From positions 34,441 to 98,440 of IMG/VR virus record IMGVR_UViG_3300047444_000577: a DNA stretch of 64,000 bases; one strand, 5' to 3'. The number at the start of each line of letters is the position of its first letter. Within the stretch, counting starts at the first letter, position 1. The notes under the pieces were generated by a model that was not told where the DNA came from, searched no databases, and saw only the letters and a program-made list of their open reading frames with translations. Made by a program: the position numbers and the translations under genes. This stretch comes from a virus. Of the stretch, positions 991 to 49,219 are shown piece after piece.

Positions 991-2969
991 TACCTCACCT
1001 CCATGCCCACGCCGGTTGCCGAGGACAGGGTGGAGTCCGTGATCGAGAGCACTTGGGTTCCGTTGCGTAGGACGGAAATGCTGGAGCCGTTGTACGACAC
1101 CGTCATACGGTCACCGTCCTGGAAGGTCTGGGAATAGGCGGTACTGGTGGGCACTCCGGCCGAGTAGCGCTGCAGCGATGAACGTCCGGCGAACCAGTAG
1201 TTCGAGGTGTCGGACATGCGAAAGACCAGGCCCTGCTGCTGCGCTCCCGAGGGAGATGTGGCGAGTGTGACGGCCACGGTGCCGTTCGCATTACCGGTGA
1301 AATACGCCGTAGCCCGACCGCTGCCGGACGGGTATGACACTCCCCCGTCGTATCCGCCGGACGTCCAGGCTCCTGAGCCGATGGACCATGTCGCTCCACC
1401 GACGTCTGTCGTACGACCCGACCAGGCGGCCCAGTTCTGGGTGAAGGAGTCGAGGTAGTTGAACGCTGGCAGGGCGTCGCTGTAGAGGGCGGTGATGAGG
1501 CCGCCGTGGCTGTCGTAGAACTCTACGAAGGGGTACACGGCCACCTGCTGGCTGGATGCCGTCTGGGTGTAGCCGGACAGGCACAGCCGGGTGCGTTCGT
1601 CGTAGCCGAGGGGGATCCAGTACGCGTTGGCGGTCGCGTTGCTCGGAGGGCTGGTGTTCTGACTGACTGCGAGTGCCTGGTACGAGCGGCCGTGGAACGT
1701 CACCAGGTCACCGGGCTGGTAGAAGACCCCGGGATCCCAGGCGGCAGTGGCGTAGGGAATGGGGATGCCCCACAGGACCGGCTGCTGGGGGTCCATCGTG
1801 GACTGCCCGGCCAGCTTGGCGACCGAGCGCACGCCCATCGTGGCGATCGAGGAGCCGGAGTTGTTGTTCCGCACCACCAGTGCGTTGCCCGCCTGGCTGG
1901 TCGGGTTGGTGGCGTCCTGCACACCGACGAAGACCTGGACCGCGTTGGTGCCCGGAGCCACTCCAGCGGTGAAGGAGACCTCCTCCCAGCCCGCGATGTT
2001 GCCGTTGGAGTTGACCAAGGTGGCATCGGTGCTGGCCGACACAACCGTCCAGTAGGCGTTGGAAGAGCCGGTGCCGGTAGGGACCTGCGCCTGCCCGTAC
2101 GCCCCGCTGGAACCGGCCGCGTAGAGGTAGCTCCCGAACTGCACGCGCTCGCCGGAGGCGTAGTTCACGCCCGCATCCCAGATCGGGTAGATCGGGTGGT
2201 TGAAAGACGCCTGGTCATCGCTCAGCATCAGGTTGGGCCCGATCCGAAGGTCGGTGTCCCAGCCGGTGGTCTCCGCGATCAGGGAGCGGAGCTGCTCCAG
2301 GGTGCCCTTCTGCCGTCCCAGAGTTGCCGCGTCGCGGACGCGCTGGCGGAACAGGTAGGCGGGGGCGGAGGCCTCGTACTGGATGCCGAACTGGGCGGCC
2401 ATCTGCTGGATGTTGTCGAACCGGGTGCGCCAGGCGTCGTTGGTGTACCGGGTGCTGTCGTAGTAGGTCTTGACGATGTCCAGGCCGAAGCCGAAGACCG
2501 ACAGGAACGGCAGCAGGTAGGGGTTGGCGGTGTTGCTGTCGTCGGTGACTGCGTTGCCCGGAGTGACGTCGACCTTGTAGAAGTCGGGGACGAGGTCGTA
2601 CAGGGCCTGTGTGTAGCCGCAGTCCTTCGGCATCAGCGCTGAGACGGTACCTGCCCGGCTCCACTGGCCGGAGACGCTGATGAAGATCGTGTAGTAGAGC
2701 CACTGCCCACCGACGGTGCCCTGGTCGACGAAGGTCGTCGTCAGGTGGTTGACATCCAGGAGGATCTCTCCGTCGTTCTCGTTGACGGCCCAGCCGTAGC
2801 GGTTGCGCAGCAGCCGCATCGTGTCCCAGGTCCCGGCGGGTGCTGTCCACGACAGCAGGACGGTGGAGTAGTCGGCGGGTGTGGCGGTGACCGGGGACAC
2901 GTCGAAGTCGGGGCGGATGTCCGTCCCGTAGGTGTCCTGCCCGTAGAAACTCTGACCGTAGGTCGCCAT
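990..2969 (-). CDS. Baseplate wedge / P2 gpI-like tail protein with chitin-binding-like (CBM5/12) repeats
   Basis: LYDLVPDFY...RQKGTLEQLR gpI-like segment; two W..G..Y..G..V...G..Y repeats; lies downstream of baseplate J. Confidence 0.7.
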   Translation of the reverse strand: MATYGQSFYGQDTYGTDIRPDFDVSPVTATPADYSTVLLSWTAPAGTWDTMRLLRNRYGWAVNENDGEILLDVNHLTTTFVDQGTVGGQWLYYTIFISVSGQWSRAGTVSALMPKDCGYTQALYDLVPDFYKVDVTPGNAVTDDSNTANPYLLPFLSVFGFGLDIVKTYYDSTRYTNDAWRTRFDNIQQMAAQFGIQYEASAPAYLFRQRVRDAATLGRQKGTLEQLRSLIAETTGWDTDLRIGPNLMLSDDQASFNHPIYPIWDAGVNYASGERVQFGSYLYAAGSSGAYGQAQVPTGTGSSNAYWTVVSASTDATLVNSNGNIAGWEEVSFTAGVAPGTNAVQVFVGVQDATNPTSQAGNALVVRNNNSGSSIATMGVRSVAKLAGQSTMDPQQPVLWGIPIPYATAAWDPGVFYQPGDLVTFHGRSYQALAVSQNTSPPSNATANAYWIPLGYDERTRLCLSGYTQTASSQQVAVYPFVEFYDSHGGLITALYSDALPAFNYLDSFTQNWAAWSGRTTDVGGATWSIGSGAWTSGGYDGGVSYPSGSGRATAYFTGNANGTVAVTLATSPSGAQQQGLVFRMSDTSNYWFAGRSSLQRYSAGVPTSTAYSQTFQDGDRMTVSYNGSSISVLRNGTQVLSITDSTLSSATGVGMEVR

Positions 2970-2975
2970 GCCAGG

Positions 2976-3611
2976 TCACATCTCCCGGATCATCGCGGCG
3001 CTCATCGACAGGTCGGACAACCCCTGCCACACACCGACCATGGGGTGGTAGACCTGGAAGTTGATTTTGACGCCCGCAGTGACGGGGCCCATCCAGGTCA
3101 GGGACATGTGGGTGTTGCCGTCGTAGGTGGGGATCCCGTCCTGGGAGGAGATCGTCAGACCGTTCAGTTCGATGCTGATCTGACGGTCCTTGGTCTGGTA
3201 GGCACCTGTTCCACCGGTCCAGATCGCAGCCGTGGTGACGATCCACCAACCGCTTCGGTTGGTGGTGATGGCGGAGCCGTTGAACAGGCCTTCGGGGTCG
3301 TAGTACGACCTCGGCGCGGGCCAGGCGATGTTCTTGGCGCTGCCTCCGCCCTTGTAGGAGTCGGTGGACTTGCCCAGGTAGATCGCGGGGACACCCGCGC
3401 CGCGCTGGATGGCGGACATGCGCGCACCGACGGACGCCCACGAGTTGGTACGCATCTTGAGGGAACTGTCGGCGGCCGGGTTGAGCCCGAGGGTCTGCTC
3501 GATTGCGGCGATCTCGAACTGCAGATCGTTGACGTGGCTGGCATCCACGTCGTCCAGGAGGTTCCTGTGCGTCGTGAACTGCTTGTACTGGAATGGGTAT
3601 GCAGCGGCCAT
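2976..3611 (-). CDS. Baseplate/tail-associated protein
   Basis: ATG at 3611 (MAAAYPFQY..VDASHVNDLQFEI) is coupled to the baseplate J stop; the longer ORF-track start is probably wrong. Confidence 0.65.
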   Translation of the reverse strand: MAAAYPFQYKQFTTHRNLLDDVDASHVNDLQFEIAAIEQTLGLNPAADSSLKMRTNSWASVGARMSAIQRGAGVPAIYLGKSTDSYKGGGSAKNIAWPAPRSYYDPEGLFNGSAITTNRSGWWIVTTAAIWTGGTGAYQTKDRQISIELNGLTISSQDGIPTYDGNTHMSLTWMGPVTAGVKINFQVYHPMVGVWQGLSDLSMSAAMIREM

Positions 3612-5098
3612 CAGCCGATACCTCCGGTCATGGTGATGTTGCTGATGCTGCCGATCTTGGGGATCTCCCACGCGCGGAAGATGACGTCGGCGGTACCGGT
3701 CTGGGCTGCGTCTGCGCGCGCGACCATGGGGATGGCCACGTAGCGGACCCCGTCCACGGCGGAGATCGTCTTGTAGAAGTCGGAGAGGGTTATGCGCATG
3801 CCGAAGTCGACGTTGGCGAAGGAAAGCATGGTGCTCAGTGCCTGCTGGACGTCGTACAGCACGGTGGCGCGGGAGTAGCGCGGCCAGCACTCGATGGTGA
3901 CGGGGCTGCCGGAGGTGCCGATGTTGACCGCGACGACTGTGGGTCCGCTCACTGTGACGGTCGACCCGGCCAGCGCCTTGGACTGCAGGGTGTTCTGGAC
4001 CTTGGTCAGCACGGTGGCCGAGGGGATTCCACCGTCAGGGCCGATCACGTAGGCGGAGATCGAGGTGTAGGTGGAGGCGACCGCCTTGGCGCGCACGATT
4101 CCGGGGATGGTCAGTGCCAGGTCGGAGAAGTCGGCGAGGGTCACGCACCGGTCCTGGGTGCGGAACGTACGCGGGGCGTTCGCCCGGATCTGCTCGTTGG
4201 TCTCGGGGTCAGCTCCGCCGCTCATGGCCGTGGACAGGGCGGTTCCCGCGCCGTTCAGGGCGATGGACACGCCGGTAAGGGTTCCGGAGGCGATGGCGTT
4301 GACCGCACCGGCTCCTACGTTGCCGAGGACCCCGCCGCCGACCCGGTAGGTGGCGTACACCGTCAGTTGGTTGGTGGGGATCGCACCGTTGAGGTCGTCG
4401 CCGAAGCGCACCCATGTGGATCCGGCCTCGTCCAGGAACGTCACGAAGACGCGGTCGGAGGGCTCGGCATCGACGATGAAGTCGATCGGTGTCCACTGCA
4501 CCGGGCCGTTGACGTCGTCGACGAAGACCTGCACCGTGCCTGTGATCACGGGGACATCGGGCAGCCGGAACTCCTGCACGGGCAGGCCGGTGGACGTGCC
4601 GATGTTGACCAGGCTTCGGGTGACGCCCTGGGTGACCGTGACGGTTGCCGTTCCGCCGTTGAGGGGGACGGTCACGGCCTGGTCGGTCTCGTAGGTGACC
4701 GGGCTGTCGATGGCGTCGATGTAGTCCGTGACGACCTGGGTGCCTGCGGGGACGATCACCGCAGGGCCGGGATTGGAGGTCTGGAAGGTCACCGACCCAA
4801 CGGCGGGAACACCGTTTCCGGGGTTGTATCCGAGCAGGTCGGCGATCTGCAGCAGGGACAGCCGCTGCGTGGCGGTGGGCAGGAAGGCCTCTTGGCTGAT
4901 CCGGTCGCCGTAGTAGGACAGGTTGTCACCCATGTAGGAGAACAACTCGACCATGAGTACGCCGAAGTCCCCCTCGGAGGAGGGGTTCCACTGGGGGAAG
5001 GCGCGGGCCGCGTAGTCGAGCAGGCTCGCCTTGAAGCCCTCGTAGTCCCGACTGGTGTAGTCCACGGCGGGAGTATCGGGAGGCGTGGGTGTACTCAT
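3611..5098 (-). CDS. Baseplate J/gp47-like wedge protein
   Basis: VDYTSRDYE, GGADPET.EQIR and DRCVT..DF motifs typical of baseplate J. Confidence 0.9.
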   Translation of the reverse strand: MSTPTPPDTPAVDYTSRDYEGFKASLLDYAARAFPQWNPSSEGDFGVLMVELFSYMGDNLSYYGDRISQEAFLPTATQRLSLLQIADLLGYNPGNGVPAVGSVTFQTSNPGPAVIVPAGTQVVTDYIDAIDSPVTYETDQAVTVPLNGGTATVTVTQGVTRSLVNIGTSTGLPVQEFRLPDVPVITGTVQVFVDDVNGPVQWTPIDFIVDAEPSDRVFVTFLDEAGSTWVRFGDDLNGAIPTNQLTVYATYRVGGGVLGNVGAGAVNAIASGTLTGVSIALNGAGTALSTAMSGGADPETNEQIRANAPRTFRTQDRCVTLADFSDLALTIPGIVRAKAVASTYTSISAYVIGPDGGIPSATVLTKVQNTLQSKALAGSTVTVSGPTVVAVNIGTSGSPVTIECWPRYSRATVLYDVQQALSTMLSFANVDFGMRITLSDFYKTISAVDGVRYVAIPMVARADAAQTGTADVIFRAWEIPKIGSISNITMTGGIG

Positions 5099-5573: not shown

Positions 5574-5608
5574 AAGGACGGCCCGGAAGAATTCACCGGA
5601 CCGTCCTT
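5574..5608 (-). terminator. Stem-loop downstream of the spike gene
   Basis: AAGGACGG...CCGTCCTT inverted repeat followed by a T-run on the minus strand. Confidence 0.55.
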
Positions 5609-5622
5609 CGATTGCACGGGTA

Positions 5623-8055
5623 TCAGGAAAGGTTGCCCAGCGGGATCTCTGCGTCGACGCTGAAGAGGTCACCTGTAGCGATGGCTGCGGCATCGTGCGA
5701 GGTACCGACCGCGTCACTCCAGTACAAGGACACGGTGCCGTCCGTGTTCAGTGCCATGACGACACGGGTGTTCTTAAGGACACCCGTGGATGTGCGGTTG
5801 GTGACGCTGAAGAAACGCTGTGTCTTAGTCCGGTACGCGGCTGGGACCGCAGTGGCGAAAACAGTGAAAGCAGACGCCGAGGTGAGCGCGCTTCCGGTGT
5901 AGTGGAAATTGCCGGTCCATCGGACGCCGTCCGTGGGGGTAAGGCGGTATCTCAGGGTGTCCGAGACGAAACCGGTGGCCGTTACCGTGGGGGTCTGCCA
6001 CCCGGCAGCAACCCCGGTCGAGTCGCACTTGATGACGTTGCCGGAGAGGTACAGGTCAGCCGCTGCGGACTGCAGAGTTTCGAGAAGAACCATACGCGGC
6101 GTGGTCGCCTGCCCCGTGGCAGTACCACCGACTCCGGACTGGTAGAACGCCTGGAGCCTGACAGGCACATCCTCGCCACCGTTGGGGCTGGTGAGGATCA
6201 GTTGCCCCGGGAAGTTGGGCGGTCCGAGGTTGCTGACGGAGGAGATGGAAGCACCCGTGGGTGTGATGGTGCTGGTGCCCGCGTTGTAGTCACCCCATGT
6301 GAGTTGGGCCCCGCCCATTTTGAGGTACGAGCCGCTGCTTCCCGGGACGTAGGAGATGATGTCGCCGTTCGCACCGCCGACCTCGTCCAGCACGTTTCCG
6401 CTGCTGTCGTAGACGTGCACTCCGGTGGAGTTCATGACGGTCCGAGCACCCGACGTACCGGTCTGCAGGGTCGCCCCGGTGATCGTCATGCCGTCGATGG
6501 CGGTGGCGACCAGGTGCGCGGTCTTGATCGAACCACCCTGGATCTGCGTTGACCCAAGCACCGGGCGGACGATGATGTTGTCGTACCAGGCGGTCACGGC
6601 CGTGGTGTTGAAGATCTGCAGTTTCACGTAGCAACTCACCGTCCCGGCCGGGGCGGTGTAGGTGCTGCTCATCGTGTGCCAGGCACCGTCCAGCGTCGCG
6701 GGCGCTTGGAGCGCGCCGTAGGAGATGTCCGCGCCGGAGGCGTTGACCCACGCGATGTAGATCTTCTGTACGACGCCAGTGGAGCCGGTCAGCACGGTGG
6801 CCGACCAGTCGGTCTGCAGGTAGAACTGGTCGCCGGGCGCGGCCGGGACCTTGGACAGCAGGGACAGTTCGATCGTGGTGGCCGAGCCGAAGGTAGCGTT
6901 GACCTTGATCGACTTCGCCCCGCCGTTGAACTTCGTAGTGTCGAGCGACCAGGAGGACCCGGCTGCGGCGACCTGCGCTGCACCTACCGCCCCCTCGAAC
7001 CCGCCGTCCGGCAGCATGTTGGAGGCCACCCCGGAGATGACCATCTTGGTGGCGTCGATGCTGCCTGCTGCGATGGCCACGGCCGTGATGGAACCGGCGG
7101 CTATCTGGTTGGCTGTCACCGAGTTGGCCGCCAGGTCCGCCGTCCCCGCCTTCAGCGCGGTTCCCGAGGCGGTAGCGGATGCCGCGCTGGCGAAGCCGGT
7201 CTGGGAGACGGCGATCAGTCGGTAGAAGTAGGCACTGCCGTAGTTCTGCACCGAGTCGTAGACCCAGTCCGCACCGGTCAGTGTGGCCACCGTGCTGGGG
7301 CTGGTGAAGCCAGACGTGGTGTCCCGTTGGACCTGCACGTGATCGAAGAACGCGGGCATCGGGAAGCCGGAGTGATCCAGTCCGTCCCAGGTGATGCGCA
7401 GTCCGCCCAGGACGCCCAGGACCACCGGGGTCGAGGGGACGGGCGGGGGCGAACTGGAGGAGCCGGTGATGATGTCGGCTGACGTCCACAGCGAGGTGTT
7501 GCCGCTGGTGTCGATCGCCTGCACGCGGACCGTGACGTCCACGCCGGTATGAAGCCCGTCGATGATCACCAGGGTGTCCTCGGTTACCGTCCCGCCGACC
7601 CAGGTGGTGCCGTCGTAGGAGGACTGCAGGAGGTAGTGCGAGAGGTCCGTGAGCGGGGTGCCGTCCTGGTTCTCGGTCGGCGCTACCCAACTGGCCTGCA
7701 CCCGGGCTTGGGTGATGCCCTCGGCGGTTGTGTAGGGCGACGTGGTGAGCGCCAGGGACGTCGGCTGCTTGGGTGGCTCATGGGTGATCAGCCCAAGGCC
7801 ACCGAGTTGGTCCTGGACGTTCTTGATACCCAGCGGGCTGTACACCGGCTGGGTGATGTCGCCGCCGGAGAACTGGACCCACAGGGTCCCGCCGACGGGA
7901 GGCACGGTGTTGGTGGGTGAAGAGGGAGATGCCCAGGCGCTTTCCGCACTGCCGAGGATCTGCGGGATGAGCATGGTGACGCGGGCCTGGTTGAGCGGGT
8001 CCGCGTTATTGGCGACGCTCCCCTGGTACATACCCAGGACAGGGCTAGCCGACAT
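5623..8055 (-). CDS. Baseplate spike (gp5/gpV OB-fold) fused to FnIII and CBM-like domains
   Basis: N-terminal YQGSVANNADPLNQARV...WA.P...P.VG..LWVQF.GGD..P OB-fold; FnIII-like segments; NMLPDGGFE CBM-like domain. Probable ATG at 8055. Confidence 0.8.
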   Translation of the reverse strand: MSASPVLGMYQGSVANNADPLNQARVTMLIPQILGSAESAWASPSSPTNTVPPVGGTLWVQFSGGDITQPVYSPLGIKNVQDQLGGLGLITHEPPKQPTSLALTTSPYTTAEGITQARVQASWVAPTENQDGTPLTDLSHYLLQSSYDGTTWVGGTVTEDTLVIIDGLHTGVDVTVRVQAIDTSGNTSLWTSADIITGSSSSPPPVPSTPVVLGVLGGLRITWDGLDHSGFPMPAFFDHVQVQRDTTSGFTSPSTVATLTGADWVYDSVQNYGSAYFYRLIAVSQTGFASAASATASGTALKAGTADLAANSVTANQIAAGSITAVAIAAGSIDATKMVISGVASNMLPDGGFEGAVGAAQVAAAGSSWSLDTTKFNGGAKSIKVNATFGSATTIELSLLSKVPAAPGDQFYLQTDWSATVLTGSTGVVQKIYIAWVNASGADISYGALQAPATLDGAWHTMSSTYTAPAGTVSCYVKLQIFNTTAVTAWYDNIIVRPVLGSTQIQGGSIKTAHLVATAIDGMTITGATLQTGTSGARTVMNSTGVHVYDSSGNVLDEVGGANGDIISYVPGSSGSYLKMGGAQLTWGDYNAGTSTITPTGASISSVSNLGPPNFPGQLILTSPNGGEDVPVRLQAFYQSGVGGTATGQATTPRMVLLETLQSAAADLYLSGNVIKCDSTGVAAGWQTPTVTATGFVSDTLRYRLTPTDGVRWTGNFHYTGSALTSASAFTVFATAVPAAYRTKTQRFFSVTNRTSTGVLKNTRVVMALNTDGTVSLYWSDAVGTSHDAAAIATGDLFSVDAEIPLGNLS

Positions 8056-14283: not shown

Positions 14284-15126
14284 TTAGAAACTAACGTCTT
14301 GCGTTCCCGTACTGGTAGCCAGGGCGAACTCGAACCCTTCGTGGGCCAGGGTCATCTGCTGGACGATGATCGCGTTGGCTCCGGCGTCGAGGTCGGACCA
14401 GGCTATTGCGGTCGGCCACGCGTTCCAGACGCGGAACGAGGCCTTGACCGGCGGGTTCGGAACGGTGACCGGGAAATCCAGGACGTTGATGGTGACCATC
14501 TGCCGGAACTCCGCACCGGGCTTGCCAGTTCCCGTTCCCTGGATGACGGTGAACAACTGCCGCATCCAGTCCATCATCTGCGTGTCGCCGATCGCCATGC
14601 CCTTGGACAGGGTGATCGGAGCGAAGTCGGACTGACCCATTCTGTTACCCCTCCGATTCCTCGGAGTGGGCCGATCATTTCTGTCGGCCTCTTACGCTCT
14701 CGCGCAAGATCGGAACTATATCTTGATCCCGGAGGGATCTCCCGTACATAGTCTCTGAACCTTCCCCATTTGACAGGGGCTCGGCTGCTGATTTTCCCTA
14801 CCCTGATCTTTTCGAACCATCACGCCTAGGCTTTCGCCTTACGTTGTGGTGACCAGGTCTAACAGGACGTTCCAGCAATTCTCGGGATTATCCTGCGCAA
14901 CTTACGCTGCGAGGGCCCAATCGCTCATAGGCATCTTCTGCGTGGTCGTATTCATACCGCCTTCGCGGTATGGAATGACCTCGGTCGTGACGTTGAGGCC
15001 GGACACGGACATGAAGCCCATGCGGGCGAAGCCCTTGATGTCCGGGTGCTGGATCTGCACCTGGAACTTGAAGTTGCGGAGGGGGTCCGTGGCGATGTGC
15101 CCCACGGACGGCGTGACCTTGGCCAT
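14284..15126 (-). CDS. Tail tube protein (T4 gp19-like), spliced: exons 15126-14929 and 14637-14284, 183 aa
   Basis: DPLRNFKFQV...GFMSVSGL...YREGG.NTT.QKMP joins GQSDFAPITLSKG...NAWP...DLDA to give a continuous gp19-family sequence once the intron is removed. Confidence 0.92.
14638..14928 (-). ncRNA. Group I intron (291 nt, no ORF) in the tail tube gene
   Basis: 5' exon ends in U (CCU), intron ends in G; core P AAUUGCUGGAA, Q AAUCAGCAG, R GUUCAGAGACUA, S AAGAUAUAGUUC; P1 GCCU/GGGC, P10 GAUU/GGUC. Confidence 0.93.
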
Positions 15127-22070: not shown

Positions 22071-23903
22071 TCAGTTGGTCTCGGCGATCAGGACGGCCTG
22101 GTCGGTGATGAGGCCAAGGCCCCAGATCGCGTACCAGGCGAGTGCGTGCTCTCGCATTCTGTTACCCCTCCGGTCTCCCGGAGTGGGCTGGTCATTTCTG
22201 CCAGCCTCTGCATGTCTCCATGCAGATCCGAACTATATCTTCACCCGCGTGGGGTGACCCGTACATAGTCTGTGAACCTTCCCCAGCTAAAGGGCTCGGC
22301 TGCTGATTATCCCTACCCTCAGATTTTCAAGCGTTCACGCTCAGACTTTCGTCTCACGTTGTAGCTCTGAGGTCTAGCAGGACGTCCCAGCAATTCTCGG
22401 GTTGTTCACTGACAGATTGCTCTGTCAGGCGGCCAAAGTGAAACCGAAGTCGAGGATGCCGCCGTCGCGCAGTTCCACCGGGAGGGAGATCGCGTGCCCG
22501 AAGGCGTTGTCGCCCAGGAAGATGCTCTGGTAGACCGTCTTCCCCAGTGCGTTGGTGAACTGCTTCACCTGCGTGGTCTCGATGAACACCACGTCGTTGA
22601 GGCGGCCGATCTCGCCGATCATGAACGAGCCCGGGGCCGCGTACTTGGTGACCTCGATCCACTCGGGGTCATCGCGCAACTGCCGCGACTGGTGCGGGTG
22701 GACGAACGCCACGTACGTGTCCCCCAAGCGGGGGACGTTCTTGGTGCTCAGTGTCTCGGTGGCGTCCTTGGTGAGGGCCGCCGTGAAACTGAAGGTGCCG
22801 TCCAGCAGGTCAGTGCCGGTGGCGGCGGTGCCGTGCGAGTACTGCGCCATGACGCCGAACGCGCTGGTCTGGGCGTACTTGTTGTAGCCCCAGATCTTGC
22901 TCGACGCCTGCAGGAGGGTGTCCCGCGCGGACTGGTCGAGGTAGAGCGCCATGTTTCGCGTTCTGTTACCCCTCCGGATTTCTCCGAAGTGGGCTGGTCA
23001 TTTCTGCCAGCCTCTACAGGTTTCCCTGTAGACCCGAACATCTCTTGACCCTCTCGGGTCTCCCGTGCATGTTCTGTGAACCTTCCCCAGTTAAGGGGCT
23101 CGGCTGCTGATTGTCCCTACCCTCTTCTTCTCAAACCATCGCGCTCGGGCTTTCGCCCCACGCTGTGGTGAAGAGGTCTAGCAGGATGTTCCAGCAATTC
23201 TCGGGATTTTCACTGAGAGGTTTCCCTCTCAGGCGGCCAAAGTGAGACCGAGCAGACGCGAGGCCGAGGCCATCACGTCGTCGAAGGACGCGTTGAGCAG
23301 GAGTTCGGAGACGGCGACCGCGTAGCCGTGCTCAGCCACCGTGATGGAGAACTGAGAGGCCGACAGGGCGTTGGTCTGCATCCGAACGCCTTCGACCAAC
23401 TGGGAAGCGGCTCCCAAATTGTTGTACCTCATGAAGTTGATTTGGAGACCGGGCTGAACACCCAACTCCGTCTTCTTCACGGCGAACTGCTCGACAATTC
23501 GCGATTGTTACCCGCTGGCTGCGGGGCCAAAGCATTTCTGTCTGGCTCTTGCACTTTTCCATCGTGCAAGTTCGGACTATATTTTCATCTCCAGTACCGA
23601 CCTACTGCCCATCTAAAGGCTGGAACTGTTGGAGATGCCTCGCGTGTAGTCTCTACGGAGTCCCAGATGTTGGGTTCCCTCGGTATTCCCCATTCGCCCA
23701 TTTGGAGGGGTTCACCGATACAGCGTGGTTCTCACTGACCCATCACTGGATCAGGCGGCCCGAGACCGGAGGATCGGCATGCTCTGGAACAGGATCTCCT
23801 TGGACCAGATGGTCTGGATCGCCGCACCGAGCGTGCTGTTGGCACCCGAGTAGTTCGTCGGCGAGGCCGACAGGTTCGGGGTACCGGTGATTGCACTGGG
23901 CAT
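22071..23903 (-). CDS. Major capsid protein (N4 gp56-like), four exons: 23903-23765, 23494-23247, 22958-22443, 22154-22071; 328 aa spliced
   Basis: Spliced junctions read ..MPILR-F-EQFAVKK.., ..SRLLG-RNMALYLD.., ..GGILDFG-REHALAWY..; HPHQSRQLRDD and GEIGRL..V.FIET motifs; follows the scaffold gene. Confidence 0.92.
22155..22442 (-). ncRNA. Group I intron 3 of the capsid gene (288 nt)
   Basis: UUCGGU|...AACAGAAUG|CGAGAG; P AAUUGCUGG, Q AAUCAGCAG, R GUUCACAGACUA, S AAGAUAUAGUUC; P2 stem with GCAA loop. Confidence 0.93.
22959..23246 (-). ncRNA. Group I intron 2 of the capsid gene (288 nt)
   Basis: CUCGGU|...AACAGAACG|CGAAAC; same core as intron 3 with a compensatory P7 (GAACAU/AUGUUC); P2 with GAAA loop. 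Confidence 0.93.
23495..23764 (-). ncRNA. Group I intron 1 of the capsid gene (270 nt, divergent core)
   Basis: CUCCGGU|...GCGAAUUG|UCGAG; P UAUCGGUGAA, Q AAUACCGAG, R CGUAGAGACUA, S AAAAUAUAGUCC; P10 CUCGG/UCGAG. Confidence 0.9.
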
Positions 23904-24794: not shown

Positions 24795-26513
24795 CTAGTC
24801 GGTATCTGTGTCCGGATTTCGGCGGAGTCCCGCTCTGGGGCCATACGCCTGTGTCACGATCTCGTTGATCATTTTCTGAACCTCGGGTGCTGTAATGGAC
24901 CCGAGATCGAGTCCACCGGGGAGCGACACCGGATTCGGACCCCCAGGCGCATTGATCGGGTTACCGGCCGCATCCGTCTGAGGTGCAGGCGCATCCACCC
25001 CATCCGGTGGCATTCCCGTCAACGAGAGAATAGCCGAGTCGAACTGCGCCTTTAGCATGCGCAATGCGGCCTGCTGCTTGGCGTCCTCGATCTGCTCCTC
25101 GAATATCTCCCTGACCTTCTCGTCGGGGAACTCCTCGCCCAGTGTGTGCAGCGCCCCGCGCATCGACTCCAGACCCAGGGACATCTTCACCTGGATCTCG
25201 TTCAGCGCGATGAGAACGTCGACAGGGAGAGGTGCTGGCCATTCGCACTCGGTGAAGTAGGCCATGGGATCCCGGACGTCCACCATCGTTGGCTGGTCGC
25301 TCTTCATGATTCCCTCGGTGGAGGGATCGTAGAGGCGCGTCTCAGGCTCGAAGGTGAACAGGGTCTTGAGGATCAAGTTGTTGATCTTCTGCAAGCCGAC
25401 GGAATACTGCAGACGCTTCTGGTCGTATTTGGCCATCATGGGCCGGAACTGGATTGCCAGGGCGACACCCGACGTGTTGCTCACGGCCTGCATCTGACCA
25501 AGTGCGGTCTCTGGAACACCCGTGATCTCGTGCATGGAACGCTTGAGGAGTTCCAGGTACGCGAGAGGACCATTCAGGTCCATCCCGGACTCCAGATTGA
25601 ACACCTGGGCGTCCTTCGGGAGTCCTCCCCACACCTTGCGTGGGCCGCGCTCCAGGTTGCTCGCCTTCGCGCCCGTGATGATCGTTACGGGGGCCGCACC
25701 GTAGTTGATGATGTCGCTGATATCGGTGGCCTTCTCGTTGTACTCACGATTCAGGCTGATGATGTCGGCGATGTCGGAAAGGCCCCAAGGAGATCCGGAG
25801 ACCTGGGTGTTCGCGATGTGGACGACGGGGATGACACCGAGCGGGTTGGGCCGGGAGTCGATCAGCTCGTCATCCAGGTACTCCTCGATGACGTCGTCGG
25901 TCAGCACCTCGACGTAGGTGCGCACACTTCGCGTCCCGTCCTCGCCGGTCGACCAGAAGCGGTATTTCAGTTTGAAGCGGATCAGCCGGTCCCGCGAATG
26001 GGGGTGCCACTCGGGGAAGCAAAAGGCTGAGTTGAGCGGAAGGATCTTGACCTGCCCCGGCTGCTTCTGTCCCAGACTGTCTACGTATTCGGGGGCGTAG
26101 GCGACCTTCACAAAGGAATCGCCACTGACACCTCCCTGCTGGCCCATCTCCCACAGGAGCTGGTGCTTGGAGTTGTCGACCTCCCAGGCCCGCTTGAGCA
26201 GGGCTGGGATGATGTGCTCGTACTCCTTGACGCTCTTGAAGTGAACGCCTCGGCCGAAAGTGAAGTTGAGGATGTAGTCGGCGAACGCCTTCACGTAGTT
26301 GAACGTGAGTTGCGGCTCGCCAGCCTCGCGCCGGAACGCCCAGTGGTGACCCAAGTAATATGCGAAGTTCTGGGCATAGCGGTTAAGGCGTGGGCCGTGT
26401 ACCTCAAACTCTTCGTCCGCCAACTCAACCAGCCCGAGGGGCGAGATCTGGACCGTGAGGTCCGACTGCCCGGCCCGCTGGCTAGGGCTGGCGAAGGAGA
26501 TGGCTTGACTCAT
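24795..26513 (-). CDS. Portal protein (SPP1 gp6-like)
   Basis: YYLGHH, NPLGVIPVVHIAN, WGLSDI..IISLNREYN, SNTSGVAL motifs. Confidence 0.9.
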   Translation of the reverse strand: MSQAISFASPSQRAGQSDLTVQISPLGLVELADEEFEVHGPRLNRYAQNFAYYLGHHWAFRREAGEPQLTFNYVKAFADYILNFTFGRGVHFKSVKEYEHIIPALLKRAWEVDNSKHQLLWEMGQQGGVSGDSFVKVAYAPEYVDSLGQKQPGQVKILPLNSAFCFPEWHPHSRDRLIRFKLKYRFWSTGEDGTRSVRTYVEVLTDDVIEEYLDDELIDSRPNPLGVIPVVHIANTQVSGSPWGLSDIADIISLNREYNEKATDISDIINYGAAPVTIITGAKASNLERGPRKVWGGLPKDAQVFNLESGMDLNGPLAYLELLKRSMHEITGVPETALGQMQAVSNTSGVALAIQFRPMMAKYDQKRLQYSVGLQKINNLILKTLFTFEPETRLYDPSTEGIMKSDQPTMVDVRDPMAYFTECEWPAPLPVDVLIALNEIQVKMSLGLESMRGALHTLGEEFPDEKVREIFEEQIEDAKQQAALRMLKAQFDSAILSLTGMPPDGVDAPAPQTDAAGNPINAPGGPNPVSLPGGLDLGSITAPEVQKMINEIVTQAYGPRAGLRRNPDTDTD

Positions 26514-34216: not shown

Positions 34217-34543
34217 TCAGAGGTGGACGTCATAGAAATTCTCCAGGACGCAGTCAGGTACCTCGTCGAAACGCTTGGTCTCGCGGATGTGCTCTTGGCT
34301 CATGGCGTCCTCACGCCCTCGCGTCGCCGTGAGCAGAGCCTCCTCCGCCGTCCGGCCGGTTCTGCGCCAGCGGCCGAGAACTATCCCGTAGCCCCGGCCC
34401 AGGTGCACGACCAGGGATCGGGACGTTCGGTACGGCGGGTCGAGTTCTTCGGTCGACGCGGTATGAAGGAAAGGCGTTTCGGGGACCAGCCTTACCGGGT
34501 GAAAGAAGAGCGGCGTCAGTGGGATATCGCGGGCGTGTGGCAT
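34217..34543 (-). CDS. Hypothetical protein
   Basis: RBS GAGG; contains the CTTCATAC motif. Confidence 0.5.
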   Translation of the reverse strand: MPHARDIPLTPLFFHPVRLVPETPFLHTASTEELDPPYRTSRSLVVHLGRGYGIVLGRWRRTGRTAEEALLTATRGREDAMSQEHIRETKRFDEVPDCVLENFYDVHL

Positions 34544-48328: not shown

Positions 48329-48982
48329 CTACTTCACGGTGAAGCGGCCGTACGACACGCTACGGCTCCAGGGTGCGTAGAGGCCCACTCCGCGCCCGGG
48401 GCGCTCGGCCTCCAGCCAGGTGTGGCTGTTGACGTAGATGGCGACGTGGTAGACGTAGCCGCTGGAGTCGTGGACGAACACCAGGTCGCCCGGCTTCGGG
48501 CTGCTGACGTGCTGGGCGGCCCTGTACTGGTCGTCAGCGACACGGGGGATCCGCTTGCCGAGGTGGGCGAACACGTACTGGGTGAGTCCACTGCAGTCGA
48601 AGCCGGACCGGCTTTCACCGCCCCAGACATAGCGGATCCCTCGCAAGGTCTCCGCGTAGGCGACGACCTTCGAACCCGAGGTGGGTGCCGGAGTCGGCTT
48701 GGGCTTCGGCTTGGGCTTGGGCTTCGGGGTGGTACCGCTGGACCCGGAAAGCAGAAGGCGCTCCCCGGGGTAAATGCGGTTGGGGTTGAGCAGGTGGTTG
48801 ATGGAAGCCAGGTGCTCCCAGGTGGTGTGGTGGGTGAGCGCGATTCCACTGAGGGTGTCACCGCTCCGGACAGTGGCGTACTGGGACGTGCTGGGTGCGT
48901 GTGCCTGCGCCTCCGCCGCAGGGGCAATCGGAATGACTGCCAGGGCAGCAGCCAGCGTGAGTCCTGCAATCCGCTTGTTCAT
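48329..48982 (-). CDS. Secreted LysM plus NlpC/P60 cell-wall hydrolase
   Basis: Signal peptide; TVRSGDTLSGIA LysM; PK linker; YVWGG...FDCSGL...HVAIY. Confidence 0.92.
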   Translation of the reverse strand: MNKRIAGLTLAAALAVIPIAPAAEAQAHAPSTSQYATVRSGDTLSGIALTHHTTWEHLASINHLLNPNRIYPGERLLLSGSSGTTPKPKPKPKPKPTPAPTSGSKVVAYAETLRGIRYVWGGESRSGFDCSGLTQYVFAHLGKRIPRVADDQYRAAQHVSSPKPGDLVFVHDSSGYVYHVAIYVNSHTWLEAERPGRGVGLYAPWSRSVSYGRFTVK

Positions 48983-48991
48983 GAGAGCACT

Positions 48992-49108
48992 CCTGCGCCT
49001 GCGAGATTAGGTGACGGGCTCGGGAAAGTGCGCTCCCTACCGCTAAATACTCGGATTCGCCCCAGTGCTGCGTTTCGGTCTCCCGCCCCTGCTCGGGGTT
49101 GATTACAG
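48992..49108 (-). promoter_or_regulatory. ydaO/yuaA-type c-di-AMP riboswitch
   Basis: AGGGGCGGGAGACC...TGGGGCGAATC...GTAGGG...TTTCCCGAGCCCGTCACCTAA, ending at the hydrolase RBS. Confidence 0.75.
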
Positions 49109-49145
49109 AGTTTGTCCAGGAGCAGGGTTCGGCGTCTGGACAAAG

Positions 49146-49219
49146 TCGGGATGACAGGAATCGAACCTGCGACTTTCCGCTCCCAAAGCGGACGCTCTAC
49201 CAAGCTGAGCTACATCCCG
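49146..49219 (-). tRNA. tRNA-Pro(TGG)
   Basis: CGGGATGTAGCTCAGCTTGGTAGAGC..TCCGC-TTTGGGA-GCGGA..GGTTCGATTCC..CATCCCGA. Confidence 0.95.

Follow-up and report, generated by a model that had tools for sequence, protein, structure and literature searches.

The window analysed here, a 64,000-nucleotide (nt) stretch of IMG/VR virus record IMGVR_UViG_3300047444_000577 (positions 34,441 to 98,440 of that record), comes from an uncultivated phage of a soil metagenome, whose genome in IMG/VR is 98,440 bp long and about 99% complete according to CheckV. The phage is contractile-tailed and its host is probably actinobacterial. On the minus strand of the window, between a scaffold-like gene and an open reading frame (ORF) of 126 amino acids (aa), lies the frame of a major capsid protein that is broken by three inserts (Table 1). 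Joining the four exons gives 987 nt, that is, a 328-aa ORF plus its stop codon, with the residues ILR-F-EQF, LLG-RNM, and DFG-REH at the three junctions. Reading into the inserts instead leads, after 4-5 more codons, to an in-frame TGA (the ORFs then end in RSRAA, LTLAA, and FTLAA). The original prediction, made without database searches, had read this locus as four capsid exons separated by three ORF-less group I introns at 23764-23495, 23246-22959, and 22442-22155, which standard annotation would miscall. The analysis fully supports that reading: all insert coordinates are exact, and the continuous 328-aa product was reproduced exactly, including the junction residues.

The spliced product would be an HK97-type major capsid protein, judging by its profile match, its homology, and the portal-scaffold-capsid order of the genes. 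The phrog_1357 (major head protein) profile is continuous across junction 2, that is, it stops at position 140 and resumes at position 141 (second match E = 1.4e-12), and a Pfam search of exons 1, 2, and 4 gave no match. The junctions themselves were checked against capsid genes that carry no introns. In Streptomyces phages BRock (gp147) and GiJojo (gp71), the capsid gene (340 aa) is uninterrupted and likewise comes after the portal and scaffold genes, and these capsids align to the spliced product at 75% identity with no gap at any of the three junctions, the junction-spanning segments PILRFEQFAV, SRLLGRNMA, and LDFGREHAL being identical. Further, a tblastn search of the 80 nearest IMG/VR relatives found a single uninterrupted match in 75, and in 71 of these the match extends over the three junctions, with identities of up to 94%; the other five have one capsid intron each, some of them at other sites. 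Since the alignment is gapless across the junctions in both sets of homologues, the junctions are exact. A break in the alignment to homologous capsids is what the original prediction had named as evidence against itself, and it was found at none of the three positions.

Group I introns in the capsid and tail tube genes

The check by covariance model that the original prediction had proposed came out in its favor for all three inserts. On the coding strand, the Rfam model RF00028 (Intron_gpI) scores intron 3 at 70.8 bits, intron 2 at 53.0 bits, and intron 1 at 38.5 bits, the last with E-values (local search, 9e-8; genome search, 9.8e-10) that are far beyond chance. Across the whole 98,440-bp genome there are exactly four group I matches, the fourth (54.3 bits) being in the tail tube gene described below. 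The elements expected of such introns can also be read directly from the sequence. In the capsid introns, GCCG of the GGCCGCC guide pairs with CGGU to give P1, with a U-G wobble at the splice site, and in the tube intron a GGGC guide pairs with GCCU. P10, of 4-5 bp, is readable in every intron (e.g., UCGAG/CUCGG in intron 1 and CGAA or CGAG/UUUG in introns 2 and 3). A U closes each of the four 5' exons and a G each of the four introns, as had been predicted for the capsid inserts (whose 5' exons end in CGGT), and the predicted P2 capped by a GNRA loop and containing the in-frame TGA is present in all three of these, where it comes after the guide at the beginning of the insert and has the TGA in the 5' strand of the hairpin.

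Comparisons among the introns point to a fold maintained at the RNA level. Introns 2 and 3 are 82-83% identical, and a 6-bp P7 can be drawn in each, GAACAU/AUGUUC in intron 2 vs. GACUAU/AUAGUU in intron 3, which is a change on both sides of the helix. RNAalifold found two-sided changes in 27 of 80 predicted pairs for the intron family to which introns 2 and 3 belong (family B, below) and in 33 of 75 for that of intron 1 (family A), counts that rest on only four and six sequences, respectively, and are indicative. The introns also differ in composition from their surroundings, with 54-56% G+C in all four vs. 64.6% in the genome and 63.7% in the capsid coding sequence. Their longest stop-free stretches are 49-90 codons, and at 270-288 nt (291 nt for the tube intron) the inserts are too short to have a homing endonuclease gene inside. 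One frame of intron 1 is free of stops over all 270 nt (90 codons); it is too short for an endonuclease and is probably a by-product of G+C content. Of other kinds of insert, an intein is ruled out by the in-frame stops and the RNA-level fold, and a group II intron by the lack of a match and the wrong size.

The fourth intron interrupts a gene (14284-15126) predicted to encode the contractile-tail tube protein (PF06841, T4 gp19-like), which is located just downstream of the sheath gene (sheath domains are found in the upstream ORF). This intron is 75-79% identical to capsid introns 2 and 3. Three intron-less relatives (L084-L086) are continuous across the tube junction, reading TTQKMPGQSDF, and another relative (L126) has an intron at the same site.

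Hence, we consider the three capsid inserts to be genuine ORF-less group I introns and the insert in the tail tube gene to be a fourth, of common stock with them, at a probability of about 0.9. What counts against this reading is that intron 1 is below the Rfam gathering threshold (a score of 50), being recovered only when an E-value threshold was used, and that splicing is deduced here from the sequence of a metagenomic contig. Indirect support for splicing comes from the homologous intron of Mycobacterium phage BAKA, which splices in infected cells, and from selection on the fold and on the exons.

Upstream of the capsid gene, the scaffold-position gene gave no family match in Pfam and PHROGs searches. 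Table 1 lists these features together with the capsid loci of relatives that have the highest numbers of introns.

Table 1. Exons, introns, and neighbouring genes in the window (window coordinates), and capsid loci with four or five introns in relatives (coordinates of the respective locus). The caret marks the splice site.
Feature	Position	Strand	Details
Capsid exon 1	23765..23903	-	139 nt, aa 1-46 + codon 47 base 1; 3' end ...CTCCGGT; aligns with aa 1-46 of intron-less capsids
Intron 1, family A	23495..23764	-	270 nt; guide GGGCCGCC; GUGA-capped P2; in-frame TGA at intron nt 12-14; last base G
Capsid exon 2	23247..23494	-	248 nt; phrog_1357 major head protein, profile positions 53-140
Intron 2, family B	22959..23246	-	288 nt; guide UUUGGCCGCC; GAAA-capped P2; TGA at nt 16-18; last base G
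Capsid exon 3	22443..22958	-	516 nt, 172 aa, own frame intact; phrog_1357 positions 141-296, E = 1.4e-29; PF13252 Phage_capsid_3, E = 7.7e-7
Intron 3, family B	22155..22442	-	288 nt; guide UUUGGCCGCC; GCAA-capped P2; TGA at nt 16-18; last base G
Capsid exon 4	22071..22154	-	84 nt, 27 aa + TGA stop
Scaffold-position gene, 302 aa	23936..24844	-	directly upstream of capsid; position as in GiJojo gp70 (annotated scaffolding protein)
Portal protein gene	24795..26513	-	PF05133 SPP1_portal, E = 4.4e-21
Tail tube (gp19-like) exon 1	14929..15126	-	PF06841 profile positions 1-46; 3' end ...ATGCCT
Fourth group I intron, family B paralogue	14638..14928	-	291 nt; guide GAUUGGGC retargeted to GCCU^GGUC; P2 GUAA loop holds in-frame TAA
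Tail tube exon 2	14284..14637	-	PF06841 profile positions 46-134
Capsid locus of L148	~5600-8015		five group I introns (six exons)
Capsid locus of L142	4328-6490		four group I introns
Capsid locus of L120	~1600-4180		four group I introns

Intron families and their sites in related capsid genes

The introns fall into two families. Family A consists of capsid intron 1, the intron of Mycobacterium phage BAKA, and introns of four relatives (L059, L060, L074, and L078), and family B of capsid introns 2 and 3, the tube intron, and an intron of another relative (L015), with a mutual identity of 75-85%. Scanning IMG/VR with the invariant 15-mer core of family B returned 86 matches in 80 loci, of which 37 lacked every other intron element that was looked for and were put down to chance, while 21 more had just one such element and were set aside. 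After this filtering, 27 further bona fide introns were obtained, and the total for the capsid family, when mapped onto the capsid protein, was 30 introns at about 12 sites, with 0 to 5 introns per gene. Besides the loci of Table 1, there are three introns in one capsid gene (L166) and two in each of three others (L088, L106, and L162). In the residue numbering of the phage studied here, the sites are at 34, 38/39, 46/47, 52/53, ~70, 99/100, 129/130, ~138, ~233, 239/240, 301/302, and 307/308. The introns are 264-311 nt long across the capsid family and ORF-less.

These sites have only 3-4 nt in common. At the readable ones, GGU^ targets go with GGCCGCC-type guides and CCU^ targets with GGGC or GGGGA guides (at the aa ~70 site of L142 the guide could not be read with confidence), and the rule that the 5' exon ends in a U paired to a G of the guide also holds at the sites catalogued in relatives. 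Site 1 is occupied in four relatives (L059, L060, L106, and L148) and site 3 in one (L162); an intron at site 2 was seen in the present phage only. The site 1 introns of L059 and L060 are 84-85% identical to intron 1, vs. 74-78% identity for the host exons; that is, the intron is more conserved than the gene around it, but the gap is too modest to prove horizontal transfer. The L015 intron (2041-2337, aa 307/308) has a guide and P2 like those of the tube intron and a body 85% identical to capsid intron 3, which suggests a chimeric origin, either by recombination between introns or by a swapped guide. Finally, group I introns are absent from G001 and G002, two complete relatives of 105 and 107 kb that have terminal repeats.

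Other genes, too, were seen to be interrupted by family B introns that have the GGCCGCC guide. One insertion follows GGFGIPV (CCGGT^) and the other DASFR (CCGGT^), the loci being L095, L102, L110, L119, L154, and L163 (around the CCCGAGAATTGCTGG match) and L127 and L160.

The exon side of the pairing was compared with intron-less alleles, and at all four sites the phage carries the codon choice that the guide requires. At site 2 it has GGT^CGA; none of the 19 aligned relatives has GGT there, the codon being GGC, GGA, or GGG with CGC (in one case AGG) after it. The GGT of site 3 is found in 2 of the 19 relatives and the CGG-T of site 1 in 3 of them, and the tube site has CCT^GGT vs. CCA or CCG followed by GGG in intron-less relatives. 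Sites 2 and 3 share TCGGT^CGA, and CGGTCGA is found nowhere else in the spliced capsid gene.

Predicted splicing and possible routes to new sites

Following the standard group I mechanism, on which the steps given here are modelled, the late transcript would be produced with the introns still in place. Each capsid guide (GGCCG) would pair with the CGGU at the end of the 5' exon to form P1, with the U-G wobble placed at the splice site, and P10 would arise from pairing of the bases just 5' of the guide with the beginning of the following exon. Free guanosine would then attack after the U and the freed exon end would attack after the terminal G, joining the exons into an mRNA for the 328-aa capsid protein. 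Ribosomes that run into unspliced RNA may be halted by the in-frame stop, located 12-18 nt into the respective intron, and in this way be kept off the ribozyme core. Introns 2 and 3 share their guide, the UCGGU^CGA context, and phase 0, and from this we predict that skipping of exon 3 (516 nt) would preserve the reading frame and leave a protein of about 156 aa; exon skipping has been observed for group I introns of the phages Twort and SIOphi (PMC11878797).

As for how the introns came to be there, we favor the hypothesis that they are selfish, near-neutral passengers that would have been gained recently in this lineage, and not a regulatory device; they look like mobile elements that are tolerated because they splice. 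Under this hypothesis, two related subfamilies would have colonised about 12 sites in the capsid family, at positions that fit a guide of 3-4 nt. For spread between phages at the same site, ordinary recombination during co-infection is the favored route. For moves to new sites, we give a slim preference, at just under an even chance, to guide-directed insertion over ectopic conversion at the DNA level; that is, the intron would reverse-splice into an mRNA, be copied back to DNA, and enter the genome by recombination. Reverse splicing fits because the targets share 3-4 nt, no endonuclease was detected, and one guide is reused in unrelated genes. Regarding the second point, searches of the phage's own genome for HNH, HNH_3, GIY-YIG, T5orf172, and LAGLIDADG_3 gave no match (other endonuclease families were not searched), and neither did a search for reverse transcriptase (RVT_1).

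Several considerations speak against guide-directed insertion. A match between guide and target is needed by any intron that survives in an essential gene, and the match does not by itself show the route of insertion. The flanks of site 2 (GGT^CGA) are identical to those of site 3, which DNA-level co-conversion fits at least as well. Since no reverse transcriptase was detected in the phage, reverse splicing would need a host enzyme, and endonucleases of unrecognised families, or from co-infecting phages, may be an alternative source of mobility. Accordingly, the catalogue fits guide-directed spread without proving it, and the broader proposal that this capsid family is a natural record of group I transposition of the reverse-splicing type, within and between protein-coding phage genes, is tentative, with the odds leaning against it.

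Alternatively, it is quite plausible, if somewhat short of an even bet, that the introns reached new sites at the DNA level, by means of a free-standing endonuclease that the host or a co-infecting phage supplied in trans or of microhomology-mediated ectopic conversion between sites, with only those insertions surviving that happened to fit the guide. Sites 2 and 3 are the two places with the shared heptamer noted above, and the two unusual synonymous bases of site 2 copy the flanks of site 3, as co-conversion would do; moreover, there are documented cases in which ORF-less introns home in collaboration with free-standing endonucleases (PMC3984707), and the negative RVT_1 search is in line with a route that stays at the DNA level. 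This explanation has to contend, however, with a genome that has no recognisable endonuclease among the families searched, with a stretch common to the 12 sites (3-4 nt) that is far below typical endonuclease targets, and with the same guide type recurring in unrelated genes (the BAKA tail gene; the tube gene vs. capsid site 307/308).

The original prediction had also proposed that three serial splicing events act as a checkpoint dependent on GTP and Mg, which would time or gate capsid production and virion assembly. It is established chemistry that group I splicing needs guanosine and Mg, three serial events would multiply any inefficiency, and the capsid is the most abundant virion protein. 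Yet the idea found no support and we regard it as improbable: intron-less capsid alleles are the norm among relatives (75 of the 80 nearest), which makes the introns dispensable for making capsids, the complete relatives G001 and G002 lack group I introns altogether, and the number (0-5) and position of introns vary freely, a pattern of mobile elements and not of a conserved regulator. Finally, a dead, fragmented capsid pseudogene, or a mis-assembly that inserted a repeat, is scarcely credible, for even though the contig is metagenomic and introns 2 and 3 are 82-83% identical repeats, the four exons are in frame, share 75-94% protein identity with working capsids, and meet at nucleotide-exact junctions, the intron fold is kept through compensatory changes, independent contigs have introns at the same sites (site 1 in four, site 3 in one), and the genome is 99% complete.

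Relation to known systems and other features of the window

The original prediction had described phage group I introns as best known from DNA-metabolism genes (td, nrd, and pol) and as often encoding homing endonucleases; a framing of capsid introns as nearly unprecedented does not hold, given that capsid and tail introns have been published for LittleE, BAKA, Tuc2009, ICP1, crAss-like phages, and Twort. The closest case is that of the cluster J mycobacteriophages, with an intron in the LittleE capsid gene and in the minor tail genes that BAKA and Optimus carry, splicing having been shown for LittleE and BAKA by reverse transcription-polymerase chain reaction (RT-PCR; Pope et al. 2013, PMC3706429); the Tuc2009 capsid intron is cited in the same paper. 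The BAKA intron (265 nt) also lacks an ORF; it follows GGCGGU and shares the GGCCGCC guide with capsid intron 1, and the two are 65% identical in a MAFFT alignment and 75% identical in a pairwise one. The cluster J phages differ in having one intron per gene, an endonuclease ORF in the LittleE capsid intron, and genomes rich in free-standing HNH genes, as opposed to three capsid introns, one tube intron, and no endonuclease detected (among the families searched) in the phage described here.

Structural genes with several introns are known as well. The orf142 of Twort has three introns (Landthaler & Shub 1999) and was later identified as the tail tube gene (PMC11878797). It resembles the present capsid gene in that one structural gene is interrupted by three self-splicing group I introns that lack ORFs, and it differs in the low-GC host and in encoding the tube, not the capsid. 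We take the Twort introns to be of a different subgroup, of IA2 type. In crAss-like phages, the major capsid gene can be in as many as five pieces owing to group I introns (Yutin et al. 2021, PMC7886860); Jug phages are also intron-rich (PMC12363816). These metagenomic phages are evidence that capsid genes with several introns occur and that they confuse annotation; however, their introns were recognised by endonuclease-type domains, and they have many endonucleases and inteins and Bacteroidota hosts, whereas the introns here are minimal, ORF-less, and only four in the genome. The tape measure gene of Vibrio phage ICP1 has four exons and three introns, verified by RT-PCR (Barth et al. 2023, PMC10448857), and by blastn the family B core is about 76% identical to an ICP1 region over about 100 nt. 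This similarity is limited to the ribozyme core, the gene and the host differ, and the middle one of the ICP1 introns usually has an HNH endonuclease gene inside. Searching deposited phages by blastn with intron 3 gave partial matches only (ICP1, LucasX, and Klebsiella phages), never at 80% coverage.

A precedent for the pattern of sites is found in eukaryotic ribosomal RNA genes (rDNA), where related introns at different sites share only a short complement to the guide (2005, PMC1299323; reviewed in PMC3984707), and a 2014 review described the reverse-splicing pathway as without direct evidence and as resting for the most part on rDNA cases (PMC3984707). The difference is that the targets there are rRNA genes, whereas here they are phage genes that code for proteins and show a synonymous-codon fit at each site compared; in both cases the mechanism is putative.

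It is important to note, therefore, what is and what is not new. Capsid and tail introns, structural genes with three introns, and capsid genes in five fragments were already known, so that this capsid gene is no new kind, and our results leave the understanding of group I splicing itself as it was. Rather, they add uncultivated relatives of Streptomyces phages to those known to have structural genes with several introns and provide a data set (two intron subfamilies, three guide types, about 12 target sites, and codon fits at the four sites compared) that bears on the old open question of how group I introns without endonucleases reach new sites. We know of no report of guide-matched group I spread to a dozen sites. 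If reverse-splicing transposition were true, a pathway so far only circumstantial from rDNA would become testable with short, defined RNAs. There is a practical side to this, too. Gene callers would give the capsid and tail tube genes as fragments or pseudogenes, and likewise for relatives whose capsid gene has up to five introns. Further, family A introns score 31-49 bits, below the Rfam gathering cut-off, and phage annotation pipelines therefore under-call them.

Elsewhere in the window (48329-49219, minus strand), a cyclic di-AMP (ydaO-type) riboswitch (48981-49144, 62.5 bits) was observed directly upstream of a 217-aa ORF, in which a signal peptide, a LysM-like motif, and an NlpC/P60-like motif can be recognised by eye. 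A tRNA-Pro abuts the riboswitch, and a tRNA-Leu and a tRNA-Asn are located downstream. Together, the riboswitch and the ORF would be a putative riboswitch-controlled cell-wall hydrolase in a phage genome.

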